This document shows positions 16,334 through 63,051 of a stretch of 64,000 nt of DNA, piece by piece. This DNA is from a bacterium (GTDB lineage: Bacteria; SZUA-182; DTGQ01; JAFGSM01): positions 26,993 to 90,992 of the forward strand of contig JBLIRP010000001.1 in the NCBI GenBank assembly GCA_049472355.1. The letters are read 5' to 3'. The translations under genes were made by a program, and so were the position numbers. The notes beneath the pieces were generated by a model that had not been told where the DNA came from, did no database searches, and saw only the letters and a list, made by a program, of their open reading frames with translations. Within the stretch, counting starts at the first letter, position 1. The number at the start of each line of letters is the position of its first letter.

Positions 16334-18229
16334 TTGGGTATGAGGAGGAAGGATGGTTCACGCCCCCTTTTTGTGTGGAATTGTGTCCTGGCAGTGATTC
16401 TCTGTATGGTATGCCTCTCATGTGCGGCGTGGGCGGATACCTTCGTATGGCAGGACTTCGAATACTGGGATTCCCCAAGAAATCACGGATGGGTCTGCTC
16501 GTCGCCATCCTATCCGGTGTGGGGACCGGTGGGGTACGGCAGCCTTCGGACCGCCATAGACGCGCGCTTGCAGAGCAGGGTCCTGGTGGTCGAGAGCATG
16601 CCCTCCACGTTCAACAACTTCTTCCGCTTCCGCACACTCAACGCCTCGGTCCCCGACCCAAATCCATCCACACAGGGATTCGATAAGAATATCATATCCT
16701 TCAATATCATCAATCGATTCGGGATAGAGCAGTTCGAACAGTGGGAGGCGCAGATACATGTGGAAACCAGAAACGGCAGGAATGTGCTGCTGGTGTATCG
16801 TCCGCGGGGTGCATCCGAGTCGGGGCCCGAGGTGGGCGGTTATGCGGAATACGGGTACAGGGGAGCGATCAATGGGGGGGACCCTGAGCGTTCCGATCGT
16901 CCCCTGGTGGTGATCTACGACATCGGGAGACAATACCAGGACGGCGCATGGCACCTTGTGGTGAGGGATCTTGACGAGGACATTCGGAAGATCGGGATGT
17001 GGCAGGGGATCGATTTTTCCCTTGACGGATTCGGCCAGGAATTGTTTTACGGGCCTGAGCAATCCGCCATCGTCTCCGTCATGTTTGCCGGGTTCACGAT
17101 GAGGGTTGACAATATCGCCTTTCACGACCGCATGCTCGATATCGTCAACCACCCTCCGAAACTCCAGAGGATCGGTCCCCAATTCGCGCAGATATTCGTC
17201 CCCTTCAGCTATCTCATCTCCGTGTATGAACGTTCGGACATGAGCGGTTTCGTTGACGAGCGGTACGAATTCGTTGCGACCATCGGCGGATACGGATACA
17301 GGGGCGTCCAGACCTCCGACATGATCTTCAGGGTAAAGGAGGATCCGAATAACCCGGGACACTATCGTGCCTGTGAGCCGGACGATCCGGCCTGCCTCCC
17401 TGACAAGGTCCTGTTGGAATTTGTTCCCCAGACCTTTGAGGACCTCATCATCACCATACGGGTAACGAATCCGGGAGGGCTTACTGACATGGAGACATTC
17501 CCCCTCTCGGTGGTCAACTATCCGGTGGTCAATCATCCCCCCTACCTCGAGGAGATAGAGAACGATGTCTATCTGCTGGGAACAAACGAGGGATACTTCG
17601 AGAAGTCCTTTATTTGCTTCGACCAGGACATGGAGGATCATCCGGGATCTGCCATGGAGCCCGGAAATATCACCTACCGGGCGATTATCGACACTGCACC
17701 CAATTACCGGTTCGGACCATGGCAGGAGACATTGATCCCCGAGCCTTTCACGCCGGTGATACGATTCAGCCCCCGATTCGAGGGCGTACATCGTATCACG
17801 GTTATTGCCACCGATTCGAGGGGGCTTTTCGCCATAACCGGCTTCACACTGCATGTGGTGAATCCGGGCACATGGCTCAACCACCCTCCGATACTGGGTG
17901 AGGATATCGATAGCCCGCAGATGGTTCGGGTGGGAGAGACCTTCGCCATCCCCGTCGAATTTTTGGACCCTGACAACGAGGAGATATACTATTCATGCAA
18001 CATCGGGAGCATCACCACAATGGAAGAGGGATTCGGAAAGACGCCGGGAAGCAGCATGGGCATCACCGAAGGGGAGGATAGATATGGCAGATACGTGAGC
18101 GGGGCGATCTTTCACTTCGTGTCGCCCTTCCCCGGAACATACCATATCCTTATCACCGCTTATGATCTCAGGGGAGGCTATTGCACGGCCGAATTCATCC
18201 TGGATGTCCAGCCATGGTGGGCACTCTAA
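16334..18229 (+). CDS. secreted NHPP-repeat (cadherin/Ig-like) protein, paralog family member A
   Basis: Signal peptide, conserved DTFVWQDFEYW N-terminal domain, then repeats beginning IVNHPPKLQRIGPQ, VVNYPVVNHPPY and GTWLNHPPI. The C-terminus is ...DVQPWWAL. It shares extensive collinear similarity with the ORFs at 48169-50034 and 57708-59927. Confidence 0.7.
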   Translation: MGMRRKDGSRPLFVWNCVLAVILCMVCLSCAAWADTFVWQDFEYWDSPRNHGWVCSSPSYPVWGPVGYGSLRTAIDARLQSRVLVVESMPSTFNNFFRFRTLNASVPDPNPSTQGFDKNIISFNIINRFGIEQFEQWEAQIHVETRNGRNVLLVYRPRGASESGPEVGGYAEYGYRGAINGGDPERSDRPLVVIYDIGRQYQDGAWHLVVRDLDEDIRKIGMWQGIDFSLDGFGQELFYGPEQSAIVSVMFAGFTMRVDNIAFHDRMLDIVNHPPKLQRIGPQFAQIFVPFSYLISVYERSDMSGFVDERYEFVATIGGYGYRGVQTSDMIFRVKEDPNNPGHYRACEPDDPACLPDKVLLEFVPQTFEDLIITIRVTNPGGLTDMETFPLSVVNYPVVNHPPYLEEIENDVYLLGTNEGYFEKSFICFDQDMEDHPGSAMEPGNITYRAIIDTAPNYRFGPWQETLIPEPFTPVIRFSPRFEGVHRITVIATDSRGLFAITGFTLHVVNPGTWLNHPPILGEDIDSPQMVRVGETFAIPVEFLDPDNEEIYYSCNIGSITTMEEGFGKTPGSSMGITEGEDRYGRYVSGAIFHFVSPFPGTYHILITAYDLRGGYCTAEFILDVQPWWAL

Positions 18230-18266
18230 GGTCATGGACCGCTGCCAGATTACCACATACCCATCA

Positions 18267-18674
18267 TCAGGGGCCGGTCGGGCAGAAGGGTCCTGCAACG
18301 GATGTTCCGGGCCTCAAATGGTGTGTGAGGTTGACGCGGTCATTGCGGAGCATGGACACAAACCTGACCCCGATGCGGAACATGCCGGAATAGTCTGAGG
18401 CCTTGACCCAGGCAATCTCTCCGATCGCGTTGATAGGGTCTTCCGGATAGTAGTCCAGAAGGGCGATGGTGATGAGGAGCCTTGATTTGATATCGCACGG
18501 CTGGTCGCTCAGGAATGAAAAACCACCCGTGCTGATGTTCTCAACCCTGCACACGAGGGACTCATTGAAGAAGTGACCCTGATCACAGGACTGAAACGTG
18601 CAGTTTGCCCGCGCCCGAAAACGGTGGTAGGTTCGCCGTTCCTGCCGTTTGTCATACGGTATATGCCCTGTCAT
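18267..18674 (-). CDS. PilZ domain protein (putative c-di-GMP receptor)
   Basis: RxxxR motif (RRTYHRFR) and D/NxSxGG motif (ENISTGG) with PilZ spacing. 135 aa, stand-alone. Confidence 0.6.
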   Translation of the reverse strand: MTGHIPYDKRQERRTYHRFRARANCTFQSCDQGHFFNESLVCRVENISTGGFSFLSDQPCDIKSRLLITIALLDYYPEDPINAIGEIAWVKASDYSGMFRIGVRFVSMLRNDRVNLTHHLRPGTSVAGPFCPTGP

Positions 18675-19074
18675 ATTTTTTCCCCCTTATGTAAGTTTGC
18701 AAGGCATTGTGGGAACGTAGCCAAAAAAGGAGGAATATCATCACGGGCGGAATTCCGATTGTTGCACCCCGTTCAGGAATACCAACCCGCTTCAAATTAT
18801 GAATCAGCGTGCAAGCCGCATTGAACATGGATCATGAGTATCACTCAGCAGAAAATGTGAGAAAGATCTACAAACAACTACTATAAATATATACAATAGA
18901 AAAGGAATCGTCAAGTGTTCGGGGTGAATATTCCTTTCCATTGTTCCGGACAGCGATCCAACACCCGACGTCCCGTCCACGATCTCCTTGACATGCAAGG
19001 ATATTCATATTACAGTTACATGGCGCTCGATGCGGCTGACGGATAGACATTTTGAACCATCGGAAGTACAAGGA

Positions 19075-20169
19075 ATGTATGGGATGGATTCCATGGATAT
19101 TCTATTGAGAGACAATATACAAGACTTGTCGCCCTACCCGATAGAGGATCATGCATACAGGATCAAGCTTGATGCCAATGAAAATCCCTGTTCCATAGAC
19201 TGGGCAGCGTGGCCGGGTGTTATGGAAGGGTTGCGTGACATTGCACTGAACCGGTATCCGGATCCCCATGCCAGGGCATTGAGGGATGCCATATCCGGGT
19301 ATGTGAACTGGCCGGCATCGGGGATGATCCTTGGAAACGGATCGGATGAATTGATCCAGTATATACTCATGGCATACGGAGGACCCGAACGTCCGGTGTA
19401 TGTACCCCATCCCAGCTTCTCCATGTACCGGATCATCGCCGTTTCCATGGGGCAGAAATTTCTTCCCATCCCTCTTGGCGAGGGCTTCGAGCTCTGCGTC
19501 CATGACGCCCTGCTCAAGGAACTCGCCGCTCCCCCCCAGAAACTGGTGTTCATTGCAACCCCCAACAATCCCACGGGGAATGCCTTCAAGCGGGAGGATG
19601 TTCTTGCCATCGTGAAGGCCACCCGGGGGATTGTGTGCATTGACGAGGCATATCTGGATTTTTGCGACGATGAGGGATTCCTCGGCGTACTCCCTCAATT
19701 CGAACAGGTGATCATCCTGCGCACCCTCTCCAAGATAGGGCTGGCAGGTTTGAGGGTGGGCATCCTCCTGGCAAACAAGTCTGTAATTGCAGCCATTTCC
19801 AAGGTCCGGCTTCCCTTCAATCTGAATGTGGTCTCGCAATTCCTCGCCCGTGAGGTGCTTATGCGTCAGGACCTGCTTTGTGACATGATTGATAACATAA
19901 GGGAAAACCGGGAGCGGCTCTATCATGAGATGGTCAAGATACCCGGTTTACGGGTATTTCCAAGCCAGGCAAACTTCATTCTTTTTACGTGTGAAGGGGA
20001 TGTGGCGTCTATGTTCCACGGTCTGCTTGCAGAGGGCATCCTGATCAGGATGTTTCCTCCCGAGGGGCCATGGCCGGGATTTCTGAGGGTTACGGTGGGA
20101 ACGAGGCATGAATGTGAGATATTCATAGAGGCACTGAGACGGATCATGGCACAAGGGGGAAGAGAATAA
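19075..20169 (+). CDS. hisC: histidinol-phosphate aminotransferase
   Basis: Class II aminotransferase with a PLP lysine region (LRTLSKIGLAGLRVG). It heads a hisCBHAF cluster. The track ORF begins at 18988; the likely start is MYGMDS. Confidence 0.85.
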   Translation: MYGMDSMDILLRDNIQDLSPYPIEDHAYRIKLDANENPCSIDWAAWPGVMEGLRDIALNRYPDPHARALRDAISGYVNWPASGMILGNGSDELIQYILMAYGGPERPVYVPHPSFSMYRIIAVSMGQKFLPIPLGEGFELCVHDALLKELAAPPQKLVFIATPNNPTGNAFKREDVLAIVKATRGIVCIDEAYLDFCDDEGFLGVLPQFEQVIILRTLSKIGLAGLRVGILLANKSVIAAISKVRLPFNLNVVSQFLAREVLMRQDLLCDMIDNIRENRERLYHEMVKIPGLRVFPSQANFILFTCEGDVASMFHGLLAEGILIRMFPPEGPWPGFLRVTVGTRHECEIFIEALRRIMAQGGRE

Positions 20170-20759
20170 TGGCAAGAACGGCGAGCTGTTCGAGAAAAAC
20201 CGGGGAGACGGATATACGCCTTCATCTGAACCTGGATGGGAAGGGCACCTATTCAATCGAAACAGGCATCCCCTTTTTCGATCATATGCTCTCGCTTCTT
20301 GCCAAGCAGAGCTTCTTTGACATTGAACTGACGGCAACAGGGGACATCGAGGTTGATTTTCATCACACGGTCGAGGACGTGGGCATCATGCTCGGGCAGG
20401 GGCTCAGGGAGGCGCTGGGCAACAAGGAGGGAATCAGGCGATACGGCACAGCAACGATTCCCATGGATGAAACCCTGGCAAGCGCAGCGATCGATATCTG
20501 CTCACGCGCGCTGCTTGTATTCAATGTCCCCTCTCAGGAGTGCTGTCATGGAGGGGGATTCGATCTTTCCCTCACCGAGGAATTCTTCAGGGCATTTGCC
20601 ACGAACGCCCTTGTTACGCTTCATATAAACCTCCACTACGGCAAGAACCTCCACCATATCATCGAGGCGATATTCAAGGCAGTGGGCAGGGCGCTTTCAC
20701 AGGCATGCAGCATCGATCCGAACATCGAAGGCGTTCTTTCCACCAAGGGGAGGCTGTAG
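20169..20759 (+). CDS. hisB: imidazoleglycerol-phosphate dehydratase
   Basis: 196 aa with the IGPD family motifs HHTVEDVGIMLGQ and HHIIEAIFKAVGRAL. Confidence 0.9.
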   Translation: MARTASCSRKTGETDIRLHLNLDGKGTYSIETGIPFFDHMLSLLAKQSFFDIELTATGDIEVDFHHTVEDVGIMLGQGLREALGNKEGIRRYGTATIPMDETLASAAIDICSRALLVFNVPSQECCHGGGFDLSLTEEFFRAFATNALVTLHINLHYGKNLHHIIEAIFKAVGRALSQACSIDPNIEGVLSTKGRL

Positions 20760-20822
20760 ACCACCCCCACAATACGATTGAATCCGCAAACCATTGAACG
20801 GAACGTCTTACGTGACAGGGGT

Positions 20823-21443
20823 ATGCACATGCTGGCGTTGCTCGATTTCGGCCTGGGGAATCTGAAAAGCATCCAGAACGGGTTTCGATACCTCGGCCAT
20901 GAGGCGGTGATTACCCGTGATTCGGGCATGATCAGGGATGCAAACGGCCTCATCATCCCGGGGGTCGGTGCATTCAAGGACGGCATGGACCGTCTTCGCC
21001 GGCATCGCCTTGTTCCGGTTATCGAAGAGGCACTGTCTCAGGCCAAACCCATCCTCGGGATCTGCCTCGGCCTGCAGCTCCTGTTTTCTGAAAGCGAGGA
21101 ATTCGGCCGCCACAGGGGTCTCGGGATGATGGAAGGCAGGGTGAATGCCTTCACCGGGGGCTTGAAGATACCCCACATGGGATGGAACACGGTGCATATC
21201 ACCCGCCGGATCCCGCTCCTTGAGGGTGTCGGGGAAGGGGAATATTTCTATTTTGTCCATTCCTTCTTTGCGGTTCCGGAGGAGGAGGGTATTGTGGCGG
21301 GTGAAACGGGATACGGGATCACCTTTCCCTCCGTGGTGCAGAAGGGTACGCTGATGGCAACCCAGTTTCATCCTGAGAAGAGCTCGCACGCCGGGCTCAG
21401 GATTCTTGACAATTTCGCACGAATGGCTGCAAGGAGGGCCTAA
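20823..21443 (+). CDS. hisH: imidazole glycerol phosphate synthase, glutamine amidotransferase subunit
   Basis: Class I GATase catalytic Cys (GICLGLQLL) and the HVxSFF / FHPEKS motifs. Confidence 0.85.
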   Translation: MHMLALLDFGLGNLKSIQNGFRYLGHEAVITRDSGMIRDANGLIIPGVGAFKDGMDRLRRHRLVPVIEEALSQAKPILGICLGLQLLFSESEEFGRHRGLGMMEGRVNAFTGGLKIPHMGWNTVHITRRIPLLEGVGEGEYFYFVHSFFAVPEEEGIVAGETGYGITFPSVVQKGTLMATQFHPEKSSHAGLRILDNFARMAARRA

Positions 21444-22172: not shown

Positions 22173-22183
22173 GGATGTAAGGT

Positions 22184-22954
22184 ATGCTGGCGAAGCGAAT
22201 CATTCCCTGCCTTGACATGAAGGAGGGGAGGGTGGTAAAGGGCATCCGCTTCGTGGATCTCCAGGATGCCGGCGATCCGGTGGAGGTGGCGGAGGCCTAT
22301 AACCGCGAAGGCGCGGATGAGGTGACCTTTCTCGATATCACCGCATCATACGAAAAGAGGGACATACTGATTCACGTGGTGGAAGAGACCGCAGAGAGGC
22401 TCTTCATCCCCTTTACCGTGGGGGGAGGATTACGGGACCTCGATGACATCCGCGACATACTCAAGGCAGGTGCGGATAAGATCAGTATCAATACAGCGGC
22501 GGTTCAGGACCCTGACCTGATTACCAAGGGCGCTCGGTCCTTTGGGAGCCAGTGTATCGTGGTGGCCATTGATGCCAAGCGGAAAACGGATACCCCGGAT
22601 CTTCAATGGGAGGTTTACATCCACGGGGGTAGGACGCCGACCGGGCTGGATGCTGTTTCATGGGCGAAGAGGGCGGAGGAACTCGGAGCGGGGGAAATAC
22701 TCCTCACCAGCATGGACTGTGACGGAACCAAGAGGGGATATGACCTTGAACTGACCCGGACGGTGTCCGAGGCGGTCCGGATTCCGGTCATAGCCTCGGG
22801 CGGAGCGGGCAACCTGGGTCATCTCTATCACGCCCTCAATGAAGGGAAGGCGGATGCGGTTCTTGCCGCATCGATCTTCCACTATAAAACCTATACGATT
22901 GCGCAGGCAAAGCAGTATCTCAAGGAGAGGGGCATTCCGGTGAGGCTTCCCTGA
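22184..22954 (+). CDS. hisF: imidazole glycerol phosphate synthase, cyclase subunit
   Basis: [17 protein letters not shown] start. 256 aa. Confidence 0.9.
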
Positions 22955-24772: not shown

Positions 24773-24782
24773 CCATATCCTT

Positions 24783-48168: not shown

Positions 48169-50034
48169 CTAAAAGGTCCACCAGGGCTCCACGTCCAGCA
48201 GGAAGGTCATCACTGCATACCCTCCTCTGATATCGTAGGCGATGATCTCAACAAGATATCTTCCCGGCCAGGGAGTGGTCAGGGTGTAGACCGCCCCGCT
48301 CACGTATCTGCCCTTCTTATCCTCGTCGACGGTTTGGCCGATTTCGCTTTCGGGCGTAATGCCGAATCCCGGTTTCATTTCCGTTACACTGCCGATATTG
48401 CATGAATAGTGGATGACATCACCGTCAGGGTCGAAGAATTCAACGGGGATAAGGAATGTCCTTCCGGCCTTGGCAATCTGGGGACTGTCGATGTCTTCGC
48501 AGAGTATGGGGGGATGATTCAACCAGGTCCCGTAATTTACCACCACCAGGGTAAATTCGGTCACCGCCGAAAGCCCTCGCGGATCGGTGGCAATAACCTG
48601 AATCCGGTAAATCCCTTCGAACTGTGGACTGAAGCTGATTTCAGGCACGCAGGGCACCGGGATGATGGGTTCCTGCCAGGGACCATACTGGTAACTGGGG
48701 AGACCATTAATCAGGGCCGAGTAGGTGATGTTTCCCGGCTCCTCGATCGTACCGGGGATGTCTTCTTCATCCTTGTCGTAGCAGACAAATTGCTTGACAA
48801 AATAGCCCTCGTTGCTCCCCAGGATATAGACGTCGTCCTCGATCTCCTCAAAATAAGGCGGGTGGTTCTCCACCGGGTAATTGACCACCGACAAGGGAAA
48901 GGTTTCGATGTCCGAGAGGCCTCCCTCGTCCACCACCCGGATGGTCACTATGAGGTCCTCGAAATGCTGGGGGACAAACTGCAGCATCACCTTGTCCTTG
49001 GCGCATGCGGGATCGCTATTCGCACACAGGATATAGGAGCCGGCATTGTTCGGGTCCTCCTTGACACGGTGGATCAAATCGGTGGTCTGAATGCCTTGGG
49101 AGCCGTATCCCCCTATTGTGGCGAGGAATTCGAGCCTTGACTCGTCTGAGGCGCCGGTGAGCTCGATATCGGTGGCGGTGATGAGGGTGCTGAACGGCAC
49201 GAAGAGCTGGGCATACTGTGGTCCGATCCGCTGCAGCTTGGGAGGATGGTTGATGATATCCCCCAATGTATCGTGAAAGGCGATATTATCAACCATCAGT
49301 TGATACCCCTTCAGCATAATGGAGAGTATCCGTGATTCACCGGGGCCAAAAATGGACTTACCGAATCCGTCCCTGTCGGTGTCGTCCATTTCGTACCCCA
49401 AAGCCATGGCTACATCCCGGTCCAGGTCTCGAAGCACCAGGTGCCAGGTCCCATCCTGATATTGCCTGCCCAGTTCATACACATAACCGGGGGGATCCAT
49501 CCTTCCACTAAATATGTCCCCGGGTCTTCCCTCGTAGGGTATAGGACCTGACTCACCCTGGCCTACCGGGCGATAGATAAGATTGACCTGCTCACCCTTA
49601 CGGGACACGAGGAATACCTGCACCTCCCATTGATCGAACCACTCTATGCCGAACCACATGCGAATATTGAATGAGATGATACTCTTGTCGCTGATGGGAT
49701 CTCCATTGGGGTAGGTGACGGACTCATTCCATGCAAAAAATGGATAGAATTGATTCAGGTGGGACATCATGCATTCATAGAGAAGGACCCTGCTCTGCAA
49801 TCCCGGGTCGATCACCGTGGATATGCGCCCGAATCCGGTATAGGGGCACCATCCGTAGACCGGATAAGGGGGACAGGAGCTCTTCCACCCATAGGTGCTC
49901 GGTGCATTCCAGTACTCAAAATCCTGCCACACGAAGGTATCTGCCCGGGCGCCGGGTCCGGTCAGCAGAAGGTGGAAGCATGCAGCCATCATACATACGA
50001 TGACAACGAGTACGAATCCCCTCTTTTTCACCAT
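48169..50034 (-). CDS. secreted NHPP-repeat (cadherin/Ig-like) protein, paralog family member B
   Basis: Signal peptide, DTFVWQDFEYWNAPSTYGW, IINHPPKLQRIGPQ, VVNYPVENHPPYFEE and GTWLNHPPI. The C-terminus is ...DVEPWWTF. Collinear with members A and C. Confidence 0.7.
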   Translation of the reverse strand: MVKKRGFVLVVIVCMMAACFHLLLTGPGARADTFVWQDFEYWNAPSTYGWKSSCPPYPVYGWCPYTGFGRISTVIDPGLQSRVLLYECMMSHLNQFYPFFAWNESVTYPNGDPISDKSIISFNIRMWFGIEWFDQWEVQVFLVSRKGEQVNLIYRPVGQGESGPIPYEGRPGDIFSGRMDPPGYVYELGRQYQDGTWHLVLRDLDRDVAMALGYEMDDTDRDGFGKSIFGPGESRILSIMLKGYQLMVDNIAFHDTLGDIINHPPKLQRIGPQYAQLFVPFSTLITATDIELTGASDESRLEFLATIGGYGSQGIQTTDLIHRVKEDPNNAGSYILCANSDPACAKDKVMLQFVPQHFEDLIVTIRVVDEGGLSDIETFPLSVVNYPVENHPPYFEEIEDDVYILGSNEGYFVKQFVCYDKDEEDIPGTIEEPGNITYSALINGLPSYQYGPWQEPIIPVPCVPEISFSPQFEGIYRIQVIATDPRGLSAVTEFTLVVVNYGTWLNHPPILCEDIDSPQIAKAGRTFLIPVEFFDPDGDVIHYSCNIGSVTEMKPGFGITPESEIGQTVDEDKKGRYVSGAVYTLTTPWPGRYLVEIIAYDIRGGYAVMTFLLDVEPWWTF

Positions 50035-50378: not shown

Positions 50379-52268
50379 TCAGGCCAGCCACCGCTGAAAC
50401 ATAAAGAGCGTCCACAGCTTCTTGCGGTTGTCGATCCTTCCCGCACAGTGGTCTCGAAGCAATCCATTCACCACATCCGGATCAAAGATGCCCTGCCTTC
50501 GTATCAGATCCGGATTGAGGGTATCCCCGAAGAGTTCCCTCAATTCGCCCTTGATCCATCGGGCCACGGGGATGCCGAATCCCTTCTTTTTTCGATGGAT
50601 GATGGAGCGGGGCAGGAGCGCGGCAACAGCTTTCTTCAACAGGTACTTTGTCCTGAGGCGCTTCAATTTGAATGAAGGGGGAAGACGGGTGACAAAATCC
50701 ACGCAGGTGTGGTCAAGAAAGGGCACACGAACCTCCAGGGAATGCGCCATGCTCGCCCTGTCCACCTTGACCAGGAGATCATCCTGAAGGTAGAGCTTGG
50801 CATCCAGGTAGAGAATCGCATGGAGGGGGTGATTGGCCTTGGCCCTGGCGAGATGATCCCTCACGATGGCGAAGGTGTCATGCTGTGCCAGGGATTCCTT
50901 GATCTCAGGGCGAAAGAGCAACGCCTTATCCTGCGGGCTGAAGGACCCCATCCAGATTGTATGACGAATGCCGGGGGGGAGGGATATGCCGTCGATGAAA
51001 CGCTTTGCACAGAAATCCAGGCTGAAATTTTTGTCCGATACCGGAAGGCTGCGGATAAAGGGTTCCATCAGACCTTCCCTGAGCAATCCGGGGAGTTTGA
51101 GGTAAAGCCCGGCCATGGCGTGTGCCTGGTAGGTGTAGTACCCGGCGAACAGCTCATCCCCACCGTCACCGCTGAGGGCCACGGTTACCTGTTCCCTGCA
51201 GAATTTGCACAGAAGATAGGTAGGCAGCAGTGAGGCGTCACCAAACGGCTCATCCATGATGTCACACACCCTTGGAAGGGCATCCAGCATCTGGGCAGTG
51301 TCGAACATCTTCTGATGGTGGTTGATACCGATATGCCGGGACGCCTGTATGGCAAAATCGGATTCATCAAAGGAAGGCTCGTAGAACCCGATCTGAAAGC
51401 TGTCGATCGACTCATTTGCCTGACGATGGGCAAGGGCGGTGATCGTACTTGAATCGATCCCTCCGCTCAGGAAAGTCCCCAAAGGGACATCACTGATGAG
51501 CCTTCGTTTCACCGAGGCGCCAAGCAGGTCCAAATACTGTTCTTCGCATTCCCTTTCATCGAGCCCCTGTGCGGAGGTCCTTCCCGATCGATAGTCCAGG
51601 TCCCAATACTCCTTGAGCCGGATGGCTCCCTTTTCGAAAATGAGCATGTGGCCGGGGGGAAGCTTTGATACCCCCTGATAGATGGTCTTGGGTGTGGGAA
51701 CATATTCAAAGGTCAGATACAGATCGAGGGCCTCGAGATCCAACTGCGGCTCCCATCCGGGGTGCTTGAGCAGGGCCTTGATTTCGGAGGCAAAGACAAT
51801 GTCCCCCTGTGTGGTGAGCATATAATAGAGGGGCTTTATGCCCATTCGGTCCCTGACGAGGATGAGTCTCCTGCGCTGTGAATCCCACAGGGCGATGCCG
51901 AACATGCCGTTTAGGTCTTCGACAAAGGCATCCCCCTTCTCCTCGTACAGGTGCAGGACGACCTCCCCGTCCGATCCGGACGTGAAATGGTGCCCCCGTT
52001 TGATCAGATCATCCCGCAGTTCGGGGAAATTGTAGATCTCTCCGTTGTGGAGCAGCCAGAGGGTGCGGTCCTCGTTGGTCATGGGCTGATGCCCGGTGGC
52101 GAGGTCTATAATGGAAAGACGGCGCATACCCAGGGCCATGTATCCGTCAAAGTGGGTTCCCCACTCATCAGGTCCCCGATGGACCATCGTGTCACACATG
52201 GCCTTGAGAATGGCATCAGCCGGTTCCGGCCTGGGGTCTTCAGAAGAGAAGCCGCAAATACCGCACAT
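50379..52268 (-). CDS. asnB: asparagine synthetase (glutamine-hydrolysing), AsnB family
   Basis: N-terminal MCGI (Ntn Cys2), an SGGIDSS PP-loop, and a 629-aa length. Confidence 0.85.
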   Translation of the reverse strand: MCGICGFSSEDPRPEPADAILKAMCDTMVHRGPDEWGTHFDGYMALGMRRLSIIDLATGHQPMTNEDRTLWLLHNGEIYNFPELRDDLIKRGHHFTSGSDGEVVLHLYEEKGDAFVEDLNGMFGIALWDSQRRRLILVRDRMGIKPLYYMLTTQGDIVFASEIKALLKHPGWEPQLDLEALDLYLTFEYVPTPKTIYQGVSKLPPGHMLIFEKGAIRLKEYWDLDYRSGRTSAQGLDERECEEQYLDLLGASVKRRLISDVPLGTFLSGGIDSSTITALAHRQANESIDSFQIGFYEPSFDESDFAIQASRHIGINHHQKMFDTAQMLDALPRVCDIMDEPFGDASLLPTYLLCKFCREQVTVALSGDGGDELFAGYYTYQAHAMAGLYLKLPGLLREGLMEPFIRSLPVSDKNFSLDFCAKRFIDGISLPPGIRHTIWMGSFSPQDKALLFRPEIKESLAQHDTFAIVRDHLARAKANHPLHAILYLDAKLYLQDDLLVKVDRASMAHSLEVRVPFLDHTCVDFVTRLPPSFKLKRLRTKYLLKKAVAALLPRSIIHRKKKGFGIPVARWIKGELRELFGDTLNPDLIRRQGIFDPDVVNGLLRDHCAGRIDNRKKLWTLFMFQRWLA

Positions 52269-53159
52269 GGAGCTGTTCAGTCCTTATAAGGATTAAGAAA
52301 AAAAGGGTTCATGGGCCGAAAACAATTACCGCATTATAAACAATATCCTTGGCTGCGGCAACTGCGGCGCTGGTCTTTCATGCCGGGTTTGTCTCAAAGA
52401 AGCAGCCTTTGCCATCAAAAACATGCATGATCCCTTGACAATAGCAAGGGATAAAGGTCTATAAAAGAAATATGATTCTGTTGATTCTCCTTAGGTTTTT
52501 CGCACTTACCTTCAATCGGCACTTCCCGATGCTCACATCGTTCCAAGAGCTTGATATGCGTCAGTATTCTGTAGAAACTCATCATGATGCTGAGAAAAAC
52601 CCCACAAACCCGTCTTTATAGCCTTTTTTGGTGAAGTATCTAAGGCAGAATTCCATTGCAGACGCTGCAAACATCTTGATGTGCGAAAAGCGGGCCTTCG
52701 CATCAAAAAGATGCCGGGCTTCTATGTCATTATATCTGTTGAGTTTCGAGATAAAATGGTCGCTGTCTCAGTAATAAAAATAGACTCCGGCATGTTCTTC
52801 AGTCACCGACAAATAGAATGCCATTGCGGTATCGGCTATCTTCATGTATGCATGCACGGTATTGACAAATGCAATCGTCCGCTTCCTGAAAAAGCGAAAA
52901 TGAAATTCGGCCCACCCATATGGTATGCTGTATCTATGTGCCCATGAAATAATTCTTCCCCTTTCTATCGATCCTCATTTTCTGGTGCATTGGTCTCCTT
53001 TTCACTGCTTGCTGAACTTTTAGATAATATTTGCCTTGACAAAAATCGAAAATTCTGCTTATTCTTTTGTCCAAAAAAGCGATTTCAGATTTCCTATCAA
53101 CTCCAGGCCGATTTGACGATATCCGGTTTTATTAAAGCACAGGATATTGCAAAGGAGGG

Positions 53160-55562
53160 TTGATGTTCCGGAAGGTTTTTTGGATAAATGCGGGCCTCTG
53201 TGTCATCGTGCTGATGCTTTCCTATAACCTGTATCAAATTTGGTCTCAGGTTGCAGTGGATATGAAATCGCCCCCGGGCCGTGCGGAAGAGGTACAAAGG
53301 GCAGATACGCCCGATTCATTGGGAAATGACGGCCCTGACTATACGCCCTCCCCGCGAATGAGCTATGCGCCGATCATCGAAAAGGACCTGTTCAGACCGC
53401 AGCGCGAGGAATGGCAGCCTCCTCAGCGTCAGGCTCAGCAACCGGAGAGTCAGGCGGAGCAACCATTCGCGCCGCAGGCCGGCTTAAAATTACGCGAATA
53501 CCGGTCGAACGAAAGCATGCGGGGCCAGCCGATCCCGGCCGCTGCCGTCAATGTTTGGACCTATGAAGGCGAACCGGTCAGCGCCACGGTGACCGACCGT
53601 CACATCGCCGTTGACTACGGCCGCAGCGGCGTGCTGTTCGACCGGAAGACCGGAGCAGTGGTGCGGCGGCTGACGGTGGCCAGCGGCTGGCCGACCACAT
53701 GGCCCGCCGATTTCGGTCCACGGAACCTCGTTCCGCGCCACCCGCTGTTGGTGGGCCCGGTCGTGGTCAATCCGAATTATTCGCCCGGGGTGGTAATGTC
53801 CGGCGGGCACGCGACGGTCGATTCTCAACCGCCGCAGGTGGCCGTTGCCCAGATCGTTTTCGCCGGCCGCATCTGGCGGGCGATGAAGCCGAAAGCGGCC
53901 TTGGACAAGGTCGAGCGTCCGGAACGCGGCCACGAAATAGCATGGTCGAGTATTCTCAGCGACATCAACGAGCAGTCTTCCCTGGTAGCGACTGCGGACG
54001 ACAACGCCGCCCATGCCGAGCGATTCACCACCGCCCACGGCCTGGCGGGCAACATCGTCACACACCTGGCCGTTCACGATGACACGCTGTGGGCGGCCTG
54101 CATCGATATCTACAATCCGGCTACGAAGAAATGGGACGTAGGCGGACTGTGCCGCTTAGATAAAAATGTCGGCCGGTGGCAGCGAGTGACAATGATCGAC
54201 GGGCGGTCCGTCCGCTGGGTCACGGCCATGGAGGCGATCGGCGACGAGTTGTGGGTTGGCTTCCGGGAGGGCGAGGGCGTGGCCGGCGATCAGATCGTCT
54301 TCGGCATGGGGATTTACCAGGGCCTCTATCGGCCGAACGCGACGGCGATCGTGGTCGCGCGGCTGACCCAGGGGAAGTGGACAAGTTACGCCCGCAAGCC
54401 GTTGCCCGAACCGCAGAGATCCCTCGCGATCGAGCCGCAACGGGCCGTTCCGCCCACCGAGTACCCAACGTCGTTCGCGCGGCTCGGCGATCAGGTGCTG
54501 CTGTTCTCAAAGCGCGACGCCCACCGGAGGTCGGGCAGTTGGGGCATGCGTCTGGCGGGTACGGTATCGCTCTTGGACCTGAATACGGGCCAATGGCGAA
54601 TCTACGACGCCGTGAAAGACCTCGACGCCGATCAGCTTACTGAGATGTTCAGCTGCCGCGGCGAGGTGCTTGTCAGCAGCAATCGCGGCCTGCATCGCTT
54701 CGGCAGCCAGACGGCGGCGTGGCGCCTGCTCGATCCGCAATCGCCGGTGAAAAATCCGACCATCGGCGCGACCGCCGTGGTGGGCGACGAGCTGTGGTTG
54801 GGCTACGATCGCCAGGACTTCTACACGATTGGCCAGCAGGGCATCAGCCGCTATAGCGAGCGGACGGGCCAGTGGTCGCACATGTCGCCTGCCGAACTGG
54901 GCATAGCCAGCCCCGTGCTCCAGTTTGTCACGCTGCCGAACGACGAGACATGGGTGCTTTTCGGCCAGCGCCCATGGATGGGTCCGACGATGCCCCACTT
55001 ATACCAACGCGAATGCGTACCGCGCCCGACCGGGCTGGGGCGGTTTGCCGCGGGCAAGTGGGAGTTCCCGGTCGCCGGTCAGCCGGCCTGCGCCACACCA
55101 CCACGCCATTTCTTTGACGGTACGGATAATGACTTGCTGCAACTGGGCGATTCGTTGATATATCTGTGCGACGGGGCGGTCTACAGCGGCCCGAAGCCGT
55201 GGAAGGAGATTGTTAAAGAGAACGTGATCAGCATTCACCGCGTAGCGCAGGAGCAGGGCGTTGAGATTGTGCGGGCCGCGGAATTGGGCGGGAAAACGAG
55301 ATACCAACAAGGCGTGTACCGCGCCGAGGGCGGCGAGGTGACCTTCGATGGGAATTCTCCGGTACGCTCGGAGTGGGACACATATAAGCCGTGGCACTTC
55401 GAGACCGAGCAAGGCGCGAAGCAGTGGGCCATCGACATCCCGCCCGGCAGCCGGGACTACGACGTGGCCCGTTCGATTCAGACCGCCGCGGCCATTTGGC
55501 TCTTGTCACCCGGTCAGGTGATCCGTTGCGATCGCAAGGCCCTGGAGGAATTGGCCAAGTGA
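53160..55562 (+). CDS. membrane-anchored protein with Pro/Gln-rich linker and beta-propeller (two-component-regulator-propeller / Reg_prop-like) repeats; in a high-GC island
   Basis: Good RBS (aaggaggg). One N-terminal TM helix. Reg_prop-like repeats are recognisable (AIGDELWVGFREGEG; VVGDELWLGYDRQDFYTIGQQGISRYSERTGQW). Very high GC3. Confidence 0.55.
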   Translation: MMFRKVFWINAGLCVIVLMLSYNLYQIWSQVAVDMKSPPGRAEEVQRADTPDSLGNDGPDYTPSPRMSYAPIIEKDLFRPQREEWQPPQRQAQQPESQAEQPFAPQAGLKLREYRSNESMRGQPIPAAAVNVWTYEGEPVSATVTDRHIAVDYGRSGVLFDRKTGAVVRRLTVASGWPTTWPADFGPRNLVPRHPLLVGPVVVNPNYSPGVVMSGGHATVDSQPPQVAVAQIVFAGRIWRAMKPKAALDKVERPERGHEIAWSSILSDINEQSSLVATADDNAAHAERFTTAHGLAGNIVTHLAVHDDTLWAACIDIYNPATKKWDVGGLCRLDKNVGRWQRVTMIDGRSVRWVTAMEAIGDELWVGFREGEGVAGDQIVFGMGIYQGLYRPNATAIVVARLTQGKWTSYARKPLPEPQRSLAIEPQRAVPPTEYPTSFARLGDQVLLFSKRDAHRRSGSWGMRLAGTVSLLDLNTGQWRIYDAVKDLDADQLTEMFSCRGEVLVSSNRGLHRFGSQTAAWRLLDPQSPVKNPTIGATAVVGDELWLGYDRQDFYTIGQQGISRYSERTGQWSHMSPAELGIASPVLQFVTLPNDETWVLFGQRPWMGPTMPHLYQRECVPRPTGLGRFAAGKWEFPVAGQPACATPPRHFFDGTDNDLLQLGDSLIYLCDGAVYSGPKPWKEIVKENVISIHRVAQEQGVEIVRAAELGGKTRYQQGVYRAEGGEVTFDGNSPVRSEWDTYKPWHFETEQGAKQWAIDIPPGSRDYDVARSIQTAAAIWLLSPGQVIRCDRKALEELAK

Positions 55563-56983
55563 GCAAATCCTATTCGTTGCTCGTCAGCGCTATGGCGGGT
55601 GCGGCTGTGCTTGCCTTGGAGGTGTTGGCCGCCCGCGTGATGGCGCCGTTTCTGGGCAGCGGTCCGGTTACGTGGGCCGCGATGCTGGCATGCGCCCTGG
55701 GGATGCTGGCGATCGGCAACGTGCTGGGCGGATTTCTTTGCGATCGGGCACGTCCAGCGGGCACGATCGCTTGGTCGTTGATCGTGGCCGTCGCATGTCT
55801 CGTCGGCCTGTCGCACGGCTACAAGCCGGCGATCGAGTGGACCGCTTCGTACTCGCTGGTCATCAGCGCTCTGTTGGCCGCTTTGATCACGCAGGCTGTA
55901 CCGTTGATAATGCTCGGGGCCGTCACCCCCGTGTTGCTCGGCGAAGGTCATGGCGACACGGGCCGTTGGGCCGGGTTCGTATTGGCCGCAGGCAGTGGGG
56001 GCGGCATCGCCGGGGCACTCACGACGGGAATTGTGCTCATCCCATCGATGGGATTGAGCCGGTCGTTTTTGGTCATCGCGGTCGGTTTGGCGTTTGTTGC
56101 CATACCCGCCCTTTGGCCCGAACGCCGGTGGTTTGGCGCGATTGCGCTTGTCGTGTGCCTGGCGTCGGGCGCGTGGTGCTGGCAGCGGCCCGTGGGCCAA
56201 ACGTCGATCGAGTCGTTCTATGGGCAACTGGAGGTTCACGAGACCGAGTCGGGCCGCGTGCTGCTGGTCGATGGATTGCCGCAGACCGGGATGCCTGACC
56301 AGATCATGCCCGGCGATGGCCTGAGACACGGCTATTTGCTCGAAGCGGCGCTGGCGATCCGCCCGGAAGTGAAACGCACGTTGGTGATTGGCTTGGGCGC
56401 GGGATTGGCGCCGCGGTTGCTTGCGGCGCACGACGTTGCATGTGAATCGGTCGAGATCGATCCTGTTATCGTGGACATCGCCCGCCGCGATTTCGGTTTC
56501 ACCGGTACGGTGGCGATCGGCGACGGCCGCGCGTTCGTTGCACTGGCCACGGGAAGCTACGACTTGATCGTCGTCGACGTCTGTACGGCCGACCGACTCG
56601 CGTGGCATCTGTTCACCCGCGAAGCGATCGAGCTGCTGCGCCGCCGTTTGGCCGCTGGCGGACTGCTGGCGATCCAGTTCATTGGCGATGACGGCCCGTG
56701 GTCGGCCTGCCTGTCGGCGACGGTAGAAGCCGTGTTCGGGCGCGGCCAAACAGTGATCGTGGCCCCGGCAACCAAATCAGGCGGCGTCGAGCCGCGCTGG
56801 CTCTTCGCCGCCGAAGGGCTGCCGCCGCGCCTGCCGCTTGAATTGGCTGCGGTGCGCTATGGCGCCCCGTGGCGCGTTCTCGACACACCATCCCAAGGCC
56901 AGATCCTTACCGACGATCACTTCCCCGCCGAGCACGCCTGGGCTCGAACCGCGAACCAGTGGCGTCGGCGCTACGGTAGCTGA
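55559..56983 (+). CDS. fused polytopic membrane domain / spermidine-synthase-like (class I SAM-MTase fold) protein
   Basis: About 7 TM helices, then a polyamine aminopropyltransferase-like domain (GRVLLVDG...; VIGLGAGL...; DLIVVDV). A GTG start overlaps the upstream stop (GTGA); the next in-frame ATG is at about 55592. Confidence 0.6.
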   Translation: MSKSYSLLVSAMAGAAVLALEVLAARVMAPFLGSGPVTWAAMLACALGMLAIGNVLGGFLCDRARPAGTIAWSLIVAVACLVGLSHGYKPAIEWTASYSLVISALLAALITQAVPLIMLGAVTPVLLGEGHGDTGRWAGFVLAAGSGGGIAGALTTGIVLIPSMGLSRSFLVIAVGLAFVAIPALWPERRWFGAIALVVCLASGAWCWQRPVGQTSIESFYGQLEVHETESGRVLLVDGLPQTGMPDQIMPGDGLRHGYLLEAALAIRPEVKRTLVIGLGAGLAPRLLAAHDVACESVEIDPVIVDIARRDFGFTGTVAIGDGRAFVALATGSYDLIVVDVCTADRLAWHLFTREAIELLRRRLAAGGLLAIQFIGDDGPWSACLSATVEAVFGRGQTVIVAPATKSGGVEPRWLFAAEGLPPRLPLELAAVRYGAPWRVLDTPSQGQILTDDHFPAEHAWARTANQWRRRYGS

Positions 56984-57608
56984 TAAACACCGTTTGCCGG
57001 TCTGTCAGGGCTGAGATAATGAATCCATTTGCGGTCGTCATCCTTCCCCAATTAGCGCTTCTTGAGTTCCGGGCATTTGAGCTTAAAGCGCCATCTTTCT
57101 CTGAAGCTCTATATAAAATGAAAAAAGGCGGTTCTGAAAGGCCTGCAATTCGACGATCCTGATTTTTGCTACAGCCCCTTCATGAGGTTTTTTCTGTGTA
57201 TCCTGCTCGAAGATGTCATAAAAAGCGCCGTGAAAACAGGATCACAGCAAAATCCAGCCCTACGGAGAATCGTTGCCTGCCTGCTTTTCCGATGTGGTGA
57301 TCGTAGGGCCGACCAAAGGTGCAATGAAGAAGATGAACATGGCCAAAAGACCCGGGGAAAGAGGCTCATGTCAAGTCTCTTGGCAAGGTAAAAGGCGAGG
57401 AACATGAACAGAAGAAAGAGGGGGCGAATATGATGACCAGCGGCTTGGTATAATAGCTGCGGATGTTCCTTCTGGTGATCATACCGACACCCCGGATAAA
57501 CTGCCAGTTGATCTACTCACTTGACATGTCCTGCATCTCCTGTCAGCCTGAGGAATGCATCCTTGAGGCTCGCCCTGCCTATCTCAAGGGATTCTGCGCC
57601 GGGAGAAA

Positions 57609-57646
57609 TAAAAAGGGCCCCTGGAGATACCAGGGGCCCTTTTTTC
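57609..57646 (-). terminator. intrinsic terminator: 12-bp GC-rich perfect stem (aagggcccctgg / ccaggggccctt) flanked by A5 and T6, bidirectional
   Basis: Perfect inverted repeat with poly-T. It lies 60 bp downstream of the stop of the 57708-59927 gene on the minus strand. Confidence 0.65.
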
Positions 57647-57707
57647 GTCATATGCGGGCCATTGTTACATGAGTCTTCAACCCGGCGTTAACCGATACGA
57701 CAATTCA

Positions 57708-59927
57708 TCAGAACGACCACCACGGCTTGACCTCGAGGTCGATGGTGACCACGGCATAGCCTCCCCGTATGTCGAAGGCGATGATTTCAACCTGGTAAAA
57801 ACCGGGGAAGTGGGTGTAGAAGTGCCAGTACAAATCGCCGCTGGGCAGGGTGCCGGTGGAGCCGATGTTGCTCGAAAAGTAGATCTCGTCGCCATCGGGG
57901 TCCTCCACCCTGAGGGTGGGGGACGACAACAGAAGTGGTTCCCCTGCCCTGACCACCTGCGGATGGTCCCAATCCATCATGATGACCGGGGGATGATTGA
58001 GCCACGTTCCCTTGTTGATGCTGAAGAGCATGAACTCGCCGATGGCCGAGGCACCCCGGTCATCCGTGGCCACCAGCCGGGCGCGATAGCTACCCTCGAA
58101 TTTTGGGGTGAACCGTATGAGACCGCTGCAGGGTTCGATCATGCTTTCAAGCCAGGGCCCGTATTGATAGGAGGGGAGACCGCCAAGGGTAAAGCTCCAG
58201 AATATGTTGTCCATGTCCCTTCTGAACTGATCAGTGAGGGGGAATCCGGGCACATGGGTGGTTGCGGGAAGGTTCGACAGCGAGAATATCATGCAATCGG
58301 CGTCAACAATGCCGACGGCATAGGTGTTGAGCTGTCCTACGTAGAAGATCTGATCATCGAGGTCTTCGAGATAGGGGGGATGGTTTTCAACCGGATAGTT
58401 CACCACGGATATGGGAAACGTCTCCAGATCCGATACCCTCCCGTCGGTCACCTCGATGCTCAGGATGATATCCTCGAAGTACTGAGGGGTGAAATCGAGT
58501 CGTGCGATATTGGGCCAGTAGGTAAAACCGGCGTTCCACAAGGCGCATTCCAGGTAGAAGCTGGGCAGGGGCCCGAAAAAGGGCCTTCCGAAACGCGCGA
58601 TGACCTCTTCGGCGTCATAATAGGCGGGGATATAGGTCGGCATGCCGTCGTAGGGATTGATCTCCAGCGGGTTTATGCCGTTGAACTGGACCCCGCTCGC
58701 CCCGATCCCTCCGACCGTGGCGTTCCAGCCCAGCGTTTGGTTGAAGGATGTTCCGGGAATGAACTCCAGATGCGGATTGCTTCCCAGGCGGTAGTTGGGA
58801 TTCGCAAAGATGGGCAGGTTGACGTCCACGATGAAATCCCTGCCGATGAGGTCCGATATGTTGGGGTCCGCCTCCGTGCCGAACCTGTTGGGATCCGCCC
58901 CCAGGGAGATCCAGTAGTCCTCGATTGCATTGGGATCAGTGATGAAGATGTCCTCAAATCGGTCGGTGAGCAGGAAATCAAGGACATTGGAGATCTCTTC
59001 GTCCCCGGTGTCATAGTCCGCGAAGAAAAGATACCGGTAGGGCTCGAAGATCTGCGCATAGCGCGGGCCGATTTTATACAGATACGGCTGATACTCGTCG
59101 TAAGGGACCACGCCTCGTTTATGGAAGGCGATATTGTCAACCCGCAGCAGGGGGTGCTGAAACTTGACCATGGCCACCATGGAATTTCCCGTATCGCCGG
59201 TTGACGGATGCGGTCCGAACCCGTCGCTGTTGTTTCGTTCCCCGTCATCGGTAAGGTCCACATCCCGGTCCAGATCCCTGATGATATGGCTCCACCTCCC
59301 CTGGTTGAACTCCCTGCCTATTTGGAAGAGAAAACCGGGGGGATCGTACATCCCGGTAAAGATGTCGCCGGGTATTCCGTCCCTGAACACGGGGCCGGTT
59401 TCGCACATCCCCTCGGGCCGGTAGATGAGGAGCACCTGATTCCCGTTCCTGGAGATCACCATGATCGCCATCTCCCAGGTATCCCAATGCTCGATGCCGA
59501 CAAAGGGTATCATGATATCGAAGGAGAACAGGCTCTTGTCGTTGATGGGGCTTCCGTCGGGGTAGGTGACGTTTTCGTTCCAGGCAAAGAAGGGATAAAA
59601 CTGGTTTAAGGGGGACATCATGCACGAATAGAAAAGCACCCTGCTTTGCAGGAAGGGGCACATGATCGTCTCGATCCTGCCGAATCCCGTGTAGGGGCAC
59701 CATCCGTAAACAGGGTAGGGGGGACACGAGCTCTTCCACCCGTAGTTGCTCGGTGCGTGCCAGTATTCGAAATCCTGCCATATAAAGGTATCGAGGCTGC
59801 GCCAGTCGGTGGACATCAATTCCTGCTGGGTGTAAATGGCTGACGTTGCCGGGGTCCCGGAAAACAATAGAATACCGCAGATGGCCCCTATAATGAGAGG
59901 AAATAGGACACATCCCCTTTTGAACAT
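57708..59927 (-). CDS. secreted NHPP-repeat (cadherin/Ig-like) protein, paralog family member C (longest, with extra insert)
   Basis: Signal peptide, DTFIWQDFEYWHAPSNYGW, VVNYPVENHPPYLED and GTWLNHPPV. The C-terminus is ...EVKPWWSF. It has about 120 extra residues in mid-protein relative to member B. Confidence 0.7.
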   Translation of the reverse strand: MFKRGCVLFPLIIGAICGILLFSGTPATSAIYTQQELMSTDWRSLDTFIWQDFEYWHAPSNYGWKSSCPPYPVYGWCPYTGFGRIETIMCPFLQSRVLFYSCMMSPLNQFYPFFAWNENVTYPDGSPINDKSLFSFDIMIPFVGIEHWDTWEMAIMVISRNGNQVLLIYRPEGMCETGPVFRDGIPGDIFTGMYDPPGFLFQIGREFNQGRWSHIIRDLDRDVDLTDDGERNNSDGFGPHPSTGDTGNSMVAMVKFQHPLLRVDNIAFHKRGVVPYDEYQPYLYKIGPRYAQIFEPYRYLFFADYDTGDEEISNVLDFLLTDRFEDIFITDPNAIEDYWISLGADPNRFGTEADPNISDLIGRDFIVDVNLPIFANPNYRLGSNPHLEFIPGTSFNQTLGWNATVGGIGASGVQFNGINPLEINPYDGMPTYIPAYYDAEEVIARFGRPFFGPLPSFYLECALWNAGFTYWPNIARLDFTPQYFEDIILSIEVTDGRVSDLETFPISVVNYPVENHPPYLEDLDDQIFYVGQLNTYAVGIVDADCMIFSLSNLPATTHVPGFPLTDQFRRDMDNIFWSFTLGGLPSYQYGPWLESMIEPCSGLIRFTPKFEGSYRARLVATDDRGASAIGEFMLFSINKGTWLNHPPVIMMDWDHPQVVRAGEPLLLSSPTLRVEDPDGDEIYFSSNIGSTGTLPSGDLYWHFYTHFPGFYQVEIIAFDIRGGYAVVTIDLEVKPWWSF

Positions 59928-63050: not shown

Positions 63051-63051
63051 A

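Follow-up and report, generated by a model that had tools for sequence, protein, structure and literature searches.

A lineage-restricted family of exported four-domain all-beta proteins with a candidate selenocysteine branch in an uncultured bacterial lineage

Three paralogous genes and their domain architecture

The bacterial DNA analysed here, referred to as the window, is a stretch of 64,000 nucleotides (contig JBLIRP010000001.1 of assembly GCA_049472355.1, positions 26,993 to 90,992 of the forward strand) that contains three paralogous genes, named A, B and C. Their products are rigid all-beta proteins of four domains that are exported by the Sec pathway and have no recognisable catalytic domain. 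A candidate selenoprotein branch and an invariant C-terminal tail are the chief points of interest of the family. Paralogue A lies on the forward strand at 16334-18229 (631 amino acids (aa), or 629 aa when counted from ATG 16340), paralogue B on the reverse strand at 48169-50034 (621 aa) and paralogue C, also on the reverse strand, at 57708-59927 (739 aa); all three are open reading frames (ORFs). When all window ORFs were searched with the family profile, A, B and C were the sole copies. The MAFFT alignment of the three proteins is collinear from the signal peptide through the final residue, with full-length identities of 58.5% (A-B), 51.8% (B-C) and 42.3% (A-C), and the BLASTP comparison of B with C gives E = 1e-98, well past chance. 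The original prediction of three collinear homologous ORFs with signal peptides is confirmed by these results, as are its coordinates.

Each protein consists of a signal peptide, an N-terminal head, three immunoglobulin-like (Ig) modules and a short tail. In A, the domain borders of which were taken from the alignment to B, the signal peptide is encoded at 16334-16435, the beta-sandwich head at 16436-17128, Ig1 at 17129-17515, Ig2 at 17516-17872, Ig3 at 17873-18211 and the PWWAL tail at 18212-18226. The corresponding parts of B are the signal peptide at 49942-50034, the head at 49270-49941, Ig1 at 48883-49269, Ig2 at 48526-48882, Ig3 at 48187-48525 and the PWWTF tail at 48172-48186. In C the signal peptide and a linker span 59793-59927, the head 59118-59792, Ig1 58401-59117, Ig2 58005-58400, Ig3 57726-58004 and the PWWSF tail 57711-57725; about 120 extra residues of C are located within its first Ig module.

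The motifs that had been proposed as family hallmarks were largely recovered. The block DTF[VI]WQDFEYW[DNH][SA]P..[HY]GW is found in all three window proteins, and VDNIAFH closes the head domain in A, B and C alike. It had also been claimed that each of the three modules opens with an N-H-P-P motif. This holds for modules 2 and 3, i.e. VVNYPV.NHPPY and GTWLNHPP each occur in three out of three proteins, with VVNHPP in A instead of VENHPP. The first module opens in this way only in A and B, where it starts with NHPPKLQRIGPQ; C has YQPYLYKIGPR there and lacks the first NHPP. Similarly, PWW[AST][LF] forms the C-terminal end of all three proteins as predicted, and the preceding DIRGGY reads DLRGGY in A.

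The N-termini are signal-peptide-like, i.e. a basic n-region is followed by a hydrophobic core (AWA-D in A, ARA-D in B, TSA-I in C), and are predicted to be signals of the signal peptidase I type. The ORF of A as called begins with TTG 16334. We note that ATG 16340 has a GAGGAG Shine-Dalgarno sequence at 16327-16332, 7 nt upstream, and that the orthologues of A are 629 aa long, which matches a start at ATG 16340; this ATG is probably the true start. Searching the contig index for the exact sequences of A and B gave no record, and the genomic context described below was drawn from homologues.

None of the three proteins reached threshold against Pfam or NCBIfam, and searches of PDB sequences with B (phmmer) and with a profile of the head domain returned chance ubiquitin matches only (E > 0.1). 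The AlphaFold2 model of B, based on an alignment of 74 family sequences, is all-beta after the signal peptide (predicted local distance difference test score (pLDDT) 89.2, predicted template modelling score (pTM) 0.85). The head comprises residues 32-256, and three beta-sandwich modules follow at about 265-385, 390-500 and 505-616, the starts of which fall on the NHPP motifs. Modelled by itself, the head of B has a pLDDT of 87.

The original prediction had not recognised a named family in the head, and in this respect it is superseded. A, B and C show no match to PF21174 (Glce_b_sandwich) even at E <= 1 (gathering threshold 27 bits), but 6 of the 74 family members do match it; all of them are from the short class, one of the three subclasses of the family (short, A/B and long), and the best is P0037 with 27.9 bits against a cutoff of 27. 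A search of 1.84 billion representative proteins with the head profile gave 251 matches. The 37 strongest (E <= 1e-30) are of family-like size and have the head at the N terminus, whereas the distant ones (E 1e-24 to 1e-7) are large surface proteins that bear PKD, CarboxypepD_reg or TSP3 domains or type IX secretion (T9SS) tails. PF21174 was present in seven out of seven distant matches scanned (62-109 bits), and where the two were compared the matched stretch was the PF21174 stretch. The head therefore belongs to the Glce/CFAP20 sandwich superfamily, of which it is an enlarged and divergent representative. Fold comparison is in accordance with this, as the head of the family has the same three-dimensional fold as the central beta-sandwich of Glce. 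In other words, the head is a jelly roll of about 225 aa of the Glce_b_sandwich/CFAP20 type, and its fold class is shared with carbohydrate-binding modules (CBMs) and used for ligand recognition, mostly of glycans. A, B and C have neither sequence membership of a CAZy CBM family nor a demonstrated glycan-binding site.

There are clear differences from the known members of the superfamily. The window proteins stay below all Pfam thresholds, those of PF21174 (PDB 4pw2) and of CFA20 (PF05018, CFAP20) included; the head exceeds the 123-position PF21174 model by about 100 residues, it has its own motifs FEYW...GW and GRQYQDGTWH, and it is always single and N-terminal, while PF21174 is repeated elsewhere. 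A catalytic head, i.e. a beta-jelly-roll of the GH16/GH12-like glycoside hydrolase or PL7-like lyase type, would make the proteins secreted polysaccharide-degrading enzymes. We consider this very improbable, even though the head has invariant polar residues (E40, D76, R82, E131, R190, D194, H198 and D249 in B numbering). In D-glucuronyl C5-epimerase (Glce) the sandwich is the middle domain and is non-catalytic, and the reaction is catalysed by a distinct alpha-helical domain, C5-epim_C (PMC13308652). The window proteins lack this helical domain as well as the beta-hairpin of Glce (PMC13308652), and the Pfam scan gave no match to PF06662 (C5-epim_C) in A, B or C.

The three C-terminal modules are cadherin-like Ig domains (Big_9/He_PIG/PKD). 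The window copies themselves are too divergent for the thresholds (PKD 19 bits against a cutoff of 23.5; Ig_SIBA 15 bits), but in collinear homologues module 2 passes Big_9 (PF17963; 43.3 bits) and He_PIG (PF05345; 31.8 bits) and module 3 passes PKD (PF00801; 25.7 bits), and Big_9 is matched by 29 of 74 family members. The model of B shows three units with 7-9 strands each, and Foldseek matched it with probability 1.0 to Ig tandems of protocadherin, cadherin, Sidekick, RTX-adhesin and SraP (622 matches at E <= 1e-3). The cadherin/He_PIG-type reading in the original prediction is thus borne out. An N-x-x-P module start together with a DPDGD loop is the usual signature of Big_9/He_PIG/PKD-type Ig domains. 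Both are conserved across the family, where the start is fixed as N-H-P-P and D535, P536 and D537 of the acidic loop are invariant or nearly so; the DPDGD loops may be inter-domain Ca2+ sites.

With regard to the four-domain arrangement as a whole, Foldseek found no solved structure that matches (TM <= 0.19). The best match to the full B model is the ligand-binding region of SraP (E 8e-12), with no similarity in sequence (10% identity) and a poor overall superposition (TM 0.15). The general plan of a beta-sandwich binding head followed by cadherin-like Ig modules is common to the window proteins and the SraP- and RTX-type adhesins (PDB 4m00, 6xi1). Unlike these, the window proteins are without serine-rich repeats, LPXTG, RTX or type I secretion (T1SS) signals, are far shorter (620-740 aa) and end in a PWWxY tail of their own.

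It is conspicuous that the most conserved elements of the family are the two ends of the mature protein, i.e. the FEYW-P-N-GW strand and loop of the head (with GRQYQDGTWH and R.DDI.F) and the C-terminal tail. About 72 of 80 full-length members have xPWW[STA][Y/F/L/I/M] at the exact C terminus. In Pfam and NCBIfam the tail matches no known sorting or anchoring signal (PEP-CTERM, the T9SS Por_Secre_tail, LPXTG, GlyGly-CTERM and others), and it contains no hydrophobic helix. In B the tail block (611-620) is modelled against the protein's own Ig domain with fair confidence (pLDDT 84). PDZ domains read C-terminal aromatic motifs, and a 411-aa exported PDZ-domain protein that is encoded 2 kb upstream of C (61899-63134, reverse strand) may bear on the aromatic C terminus.

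A candidate selenocysteine site in the B/C branch

B and C share a CX8C motif in a loop of the head. In B it lies at 49846-49875 on the reverse strand, in the loop that follows the first strand of the head (Cys54, codon 49873-49875; Cys63, codon TGC at 49846-49848) and in C at 59697-59726 on the same strand (Cys68, codon 59724-59726; Cys77, codon TGC at 59697-59699). The database models of four C orthologues (P0022, P0023, P0029 and P0038) begin about 90 residues late, truncated at a TGA. Upstream of these late starts the reading frame continues through this single TGA (loci L005, L006, L007 and L024), and the TGA aligns exactly with the TGC codon of Cys77 in C and of Cys63 in B. In each of these four GTDB-derived loci it is preceded by a start codon with a GGAGG Shine-Dalgarno sequence, by a signal peptide and by the FEYW motif, and there is exactly one internal stop in the 740-748 codons of each gene. 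ENA, Logan and NCBI provided four further assemblies with this TGA (L079 to L082), so that eight assemblies with five distinct sequences carry it (L005:1434, L006:1661, L007:1461, L024:1600, L079:98, L080:94, L081:74, L082:1423). The partner cysteine lies eight residues upstream of the UGA, giving a CX8U motif.

A hairpin begins 12 nt 3' of the UGA in five of the UGA sequences that were folded (free energy -15 to -18 kcal/mol, z about -3.0 to -3.4). The downstream nucleotides of L080 and L081 are the same as in L005; the hairpin of L082 has 7 bp and a GGUC loop, and its z is just -0.4. At the equivalent positions the window shows no conspicuous folding (z -1.4 for C, -0.2 for B). Only one pair of the hairpin covaries, and no Rfam model covers it, none existing for the bacterial selenocysteine insertion sequence. 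At conserved residues, the codon identity reaches a peak of 0.59-0.72 immediately 3' of the TGA, as compared to 0.23 gene-wide.

An in-frame UGA aligned with a cysteine in homologues is the classical signature of selenoproteins (PMC1794560, PMC1088965). With a single in-frame UGA aligned to cysteine, a partner cysteine and a candidate hairpin, the C orthologues show this signature. Two other explanations of the TGA, a lesion in a pseudogene and codon reassignment, were ruled out: the eight assemblies have one stop only, always at this codon, cysteine is the residue aligned with it, the signal peptide and the Shine-Dalgarno sequence are intact upstream, and no other gene has in-frame TGAs. In our estimate there is about an even chance that the C orthologues constitute an unrecognised family of exported selenoproteins, the cysteine forms of which would be B and C of the window. 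In this reading a cadherin-like stalk bears the CBM-like jelly roll, and one loop of the latter would contain a selenylsulfide-type CX8U site. With the same balance of confidence, and as part of this joint reading, the site would be a new extracytoplasmic seleno-redox or chalcogen-binding module. Note that B and C of the window have TGC at this codon, hence they are not selenoproteins themselves. The selenocysteine tRNA was not found in the window or in 60 loci, which represent a small part of each genome, nor were selA, selB and selD found in the limited DNA at hand, and a degenerate DNA pattern around the TGA gave no match in JGI metagenome contigs.

The selenoprotein reviews consulted describe no such family. 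Known prokaryotic selenoproteins, e.g. the DsrE-like and DsbA/DsbG-like ones, share with the C orthologues a single UGA aligned to cysteine, a nearby partner cysteine, a hairpin (a putative one in the C orthologues) and truncated database models. The C-type proteins differ in being a jelly roll on an Ig stalk with no thioredoxin-like or other known redox fold, in having CX8U where the known families have UxxC or CxxU, and in carrying a Sec-type signal peptide.

The nearest genome, JBLIRN (93% protein identity for C), still has TGA, and so the C gene of the window looks like a recent convert from selenocysteine to cysteine. The two genes are about 90% identical in nucleotides, but over the 30 codons that surround the site the identity is only 71% (window 59640-59730 versus L005:1400-1520). 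At the site itself C reads YGWC like B, and the orthologues FG[YF]U. The drop in identity could reflect a relaxed hairpin constraint or a conversion tract. A recent gene conversion from B to C as the source of the cysteine codon is unsupported by the sliding-window comparison, as C and B share only 71% identity in the tract.

The cysteine/selenocysteine pair is limited to the B/C branch, i.e. it is missing from A and from the short and long classes, and the B-type orthologues of JBLIRO and JBLIRS have no cysteine at either position. It is therefore an addition rather than the function of the family as a whole. Selenocysteine is nearly always found in a redox-active site (PMC1794560, PMC13188914). 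As the second cysteine of CX8C is UGA in the C orthologues, the B/C sub-branch would probably have a redox-active or chalcogen/metal-binding site on top of a binding scaffold.

A second TGA/Cys pair was observed in exported DsrE-family genes (PF02635) that adjoin long-class paralogues in related metagenome-assembled genomes (MAGs). TGA is present at L049:4090 (JBLIRO) and L058:441 (JBLIRM), and the cysteine form at L064:10496-11194 (VKFYL-U-Q versus VKFFLCQ); the hairpins downstream of these TGAs are indistinguishable from shuffled sequence. DsrE-like proteins are a known selenoprotein family, as are DsbA/DsbG-like ones (PMC1088965, PMC13188914), and the pair hints at selenocysteine decoding in JBLIRO and JBLIRM.

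One may go further and regard the B/C type, or perhaps the whole family, as extracytoplasmic redox or chalcogen/metal-handling proteins, with CX8C/CX8U as the functional centre, engaged in selenylsulfide/disulfide exchange or in binding sulfur, selenium or a metal, and with the Ig domains positioning it. The usual redox activity of selenocysteine, the recurrence of TGA at one cysteine-aligned codon, the DsrE-family neighbours with a TGA/Cys pair of their own and the exported selenoenzymes acting on sulfur that are known in related bacteria (PMC13510729) speak in favour of such a role. We nevertheless rate it as rather unlikely, given the restriction of the pair to one branch and its absence from two B-type orthologues, the lack of a redox fold and the failure to find the decoding genes in the limited DNA at hand.

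Distribution, descent and gene neighbourhoods

In a search of 5.8 billion proteins, 92 relatives were found, every named one of which is a 'hypothetical protein', all from unclassified MAGs. The family occurs in 12 of 185,579 GTDB species genomes, one of which (JBFMGN) has a short fragment only; the others are JBLIRN, JBLIRS, JBLIRO, JBLIRM, JBLIRT, JBLIRR, JAFGSM, JAILZY, DAOURK, JAUWIR and JBFMGO. Other look-ups added JBFLZW (GCA_040755755.1) and GCA_975972645.1, giving about 14 assemblies in all. The isolate names of the MAGs point to mangrove- or mudflat-type samples, a cold seep, Zodletone spring and a hot consortium. Each of the ten GTDB genomes that have more than a fragment contains 3-16 copies; the counts are approximate, cover fetched DNA only and include fragments. 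The suggestion of a lineage-specific expanded family therefore stands, while its description as three-membered applies to the window and not to other genomes, which have up to about 16 copies.

The isoleucyl-tRNA synthetase of the window is 57-75% identical to those of the family-bearing group and 58-60% identical to those of Thermodesulfobacteriota and Syntrophales. The lineage, which is uncultured and anaerobic, is deep and Desulfobacterota-like, and it is diderm, as lptD adjoins a paralogue (L003).

The ratios of nonsynonymous to synonymous substitutions (dN/dS) relative to the JBLIRN orthologues are 0.14 (A), 0.084 (B) and 0.149 (C). The check for diversifying selection that had been suggested thus gave the opposite result: A, B and C are real genes under purifying selection. 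The subfamilies keep conserved genomic positions, and the three are old, vertically inherited paralogues. A recent local triplication is ruled out, as A, B and C each have orthologues at conserved positions in other species. One long-class copy (JBLIRR, L063:6700-7700) has several in-frame TAG and TAA codons at conserved positions, i.e. it is a decaying pseudogene, which indicates turnover within the family.

B and C had been taken as the closest pair. This is true of the N-terminal head (58% identity for B-C versus 50% for A-B), but not of the whole protein or of the three Ig modules (61-66% for A-B versus 40-53% for B-C). When 81 members of the family were compared, A and B grouped in a single clade, and B is a duplicate restricted to the closest genomes. 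The body of C clusters with long-class proteins, whereas its head resembles those of A and B, with 58% identity to B as compared to about 26% between B and other long-class heads. C can therefore be described, on the basis of these identities, as a domain mosaic with an A/B-type head on a long-class body.

The gene upstream of A (13749-16223, forward strand) encodes an 824-aa exported protein with CarboxypepD_reg (transthyretin-like) repeats (PF13620, 81.8 bits). It ends 116 bp before ATG 16340, and no terminator or promoter match was found in the gap. Homologues of this partner (792-923 aa) lie directly upstream of the A-type gene in 12 out of 12 A-type loci fetched, which represent nine assemblies besides that of the window, and the pair adjoins ileS-lspA-lgt. 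The C-terminal part of the partner (about 190 aa) has two 'G.NLF.Y...G.GY' repeats and no Pfam match; the protein also shows a weak match to TIGR04134 (radical-SAM-associated lipoprotein).

An AsnB-family glutamine amidotransferase gene is located between C and B (50379-52268, reverse strand; Pfam Asn_synthase, passing TIGR01536). The best NCBIfam model of its product is TIGR03108, the XrtA/PEP-CTERM-system amidotransferase (616 bits, below the cutoff of 817). The order C, asnB-like gene, B on the same strand is kept in three related genomes (L005, L006, L007), and B adjoins secDF. Between C and the asnB-like gene the window contains a segment of 5.2 kb (about 52366-57593) with a GC content of 64% as compared to about 52%, which includes an 800-aa ORF without Pfam match (53160-55562) and a fused MFS/spermidine-synthase-like gene. 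JBLIRN, JBLIRO and JBLIRS lack the segment although the rest of the locus is syntenic in them, and on either side of it the window and JBLIRN share 94-100% identity. It may be an island that was acquired, or the assembly may be chimeric at this place.

Elsewhere, one short-class subfamily sits between pdxA-ksgA and accD-folC-lptD, and in L082 a glycosyltransferase gene lies 0.9 kb downstream of the C-type gene, with one 230-aa ORF between them. Long-class genes are often near secreted Pro/Trp-rich ORFs of about 190 aa and two-component genes (L029, L035, L043, L055, L066). The Rfam scan of the window gave no RNA families. Pfam gave nothing for the Pro/Trp-rich neighbours or for the small Tyr/Pro-rich proteins described next.

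Secreted low-complexity ORFs of about 130 aa, rich in Tyr, Pro and Gly, lie directly upstream of long-class genes in L030, L031, L033, L034, L036, L039, L048 and L052, and long-class genes form tandem arrays in L057, L058 and L042. Together with the many paralogues per genome, the location of the two most conserved elements at the extreme ends of the mature protein and a pTM that suggests a rigid multi-domain body, these arrangements would suit subunits with a structural role in a sheath, a matrix or a layer of the envelope, in which the PWWxY tail of one subunit inserts into the FEYW face of the next head to give a head-to-tail polymer. We think such a polymer improbable: the genes are dispersed, dedicated assembly or export genes are lacking, and the position of the modelled PWW tail on its own Ig domain fits a simple hydrophobic cap. 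No Tyr/Pro/Gly-rich ORF is present next to C in the window.

Proposed function and significance

The interpretation that we favour, with our confidence about evenly divided, is that A, B and C are lineage-restricted, exported, non-enzymatic ligand-binding, and probably glycan-binding, proteins of the envelope or cell surface. The head would bind the ligand; the likeliest candidate is a glycan, either from the envelope or exopolysaccharide (EPS) of the cell itself or from a substrate. The Ig domains would serve as a rigid stalk, and the PWW tail would probably dock the protein to an envelope component or partner. The paralogues would differ in head loops and insertions, and hence in ligand. The genomic context points weakly to glycans, through the similarity of the asnB-like gene to the EPS/PEP-CTERM type TIGR03108, the glycosyltransferase near one C-type gene and the CarboxypepD_reg partner of A.

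Several points weigh against this interpretation. In diderm bacteria the default place of a protein after Sec export is the periplasm; the organism is diderm, no outer-membrane secretion or anchoring signal was recognised in A, B or C, and the proteins could remain in the periplasm. Likeness to the CBM fold says nothing on conserved binding residues. Neither the Glce sandwich nor CFAP20, the nearest relatives in structure, is a proven lectin, CFAP20 being a component of a protein-protein junction, and the invariant polar residues of the head would suit an active site too. The neighbours are mostly housekeeping genes (ileS, secDF, pdxA-ksgA, accD-folC-lptD), so the context is weak evidence. The ligand, partner and location of A, B and C, including the surface location proposed originally, are accordingly given here as predictions.

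Taken alone, the family is one more lineage-specific group of exported beta-sandwich/Ig proteins. Its description annotates about 100 'hypothetical proteins' of one uncultured anaerobic sediment lineage and extends the Glce/CFAP20 sandwich superfamily. In diderm bacteria, the PWWxY signature could serve as a new type of signal for sorting or docking. If the selenoprotein reading is true, the mis-annotated, N-terminally truncated gene models of the C orthologues would be corrected, and selenocysteine in an exported scaffold that is not thioredoxin-like would be a new kind of selenoprotein. The near-identical genomes provide a natural selenocysteine/cysteine pair that is suited to probing the role of the site. 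For the lineage itself, the family is among the most expanded of its envelope-protein families and its positions are conserved, which points to a core role in the cell envelope.

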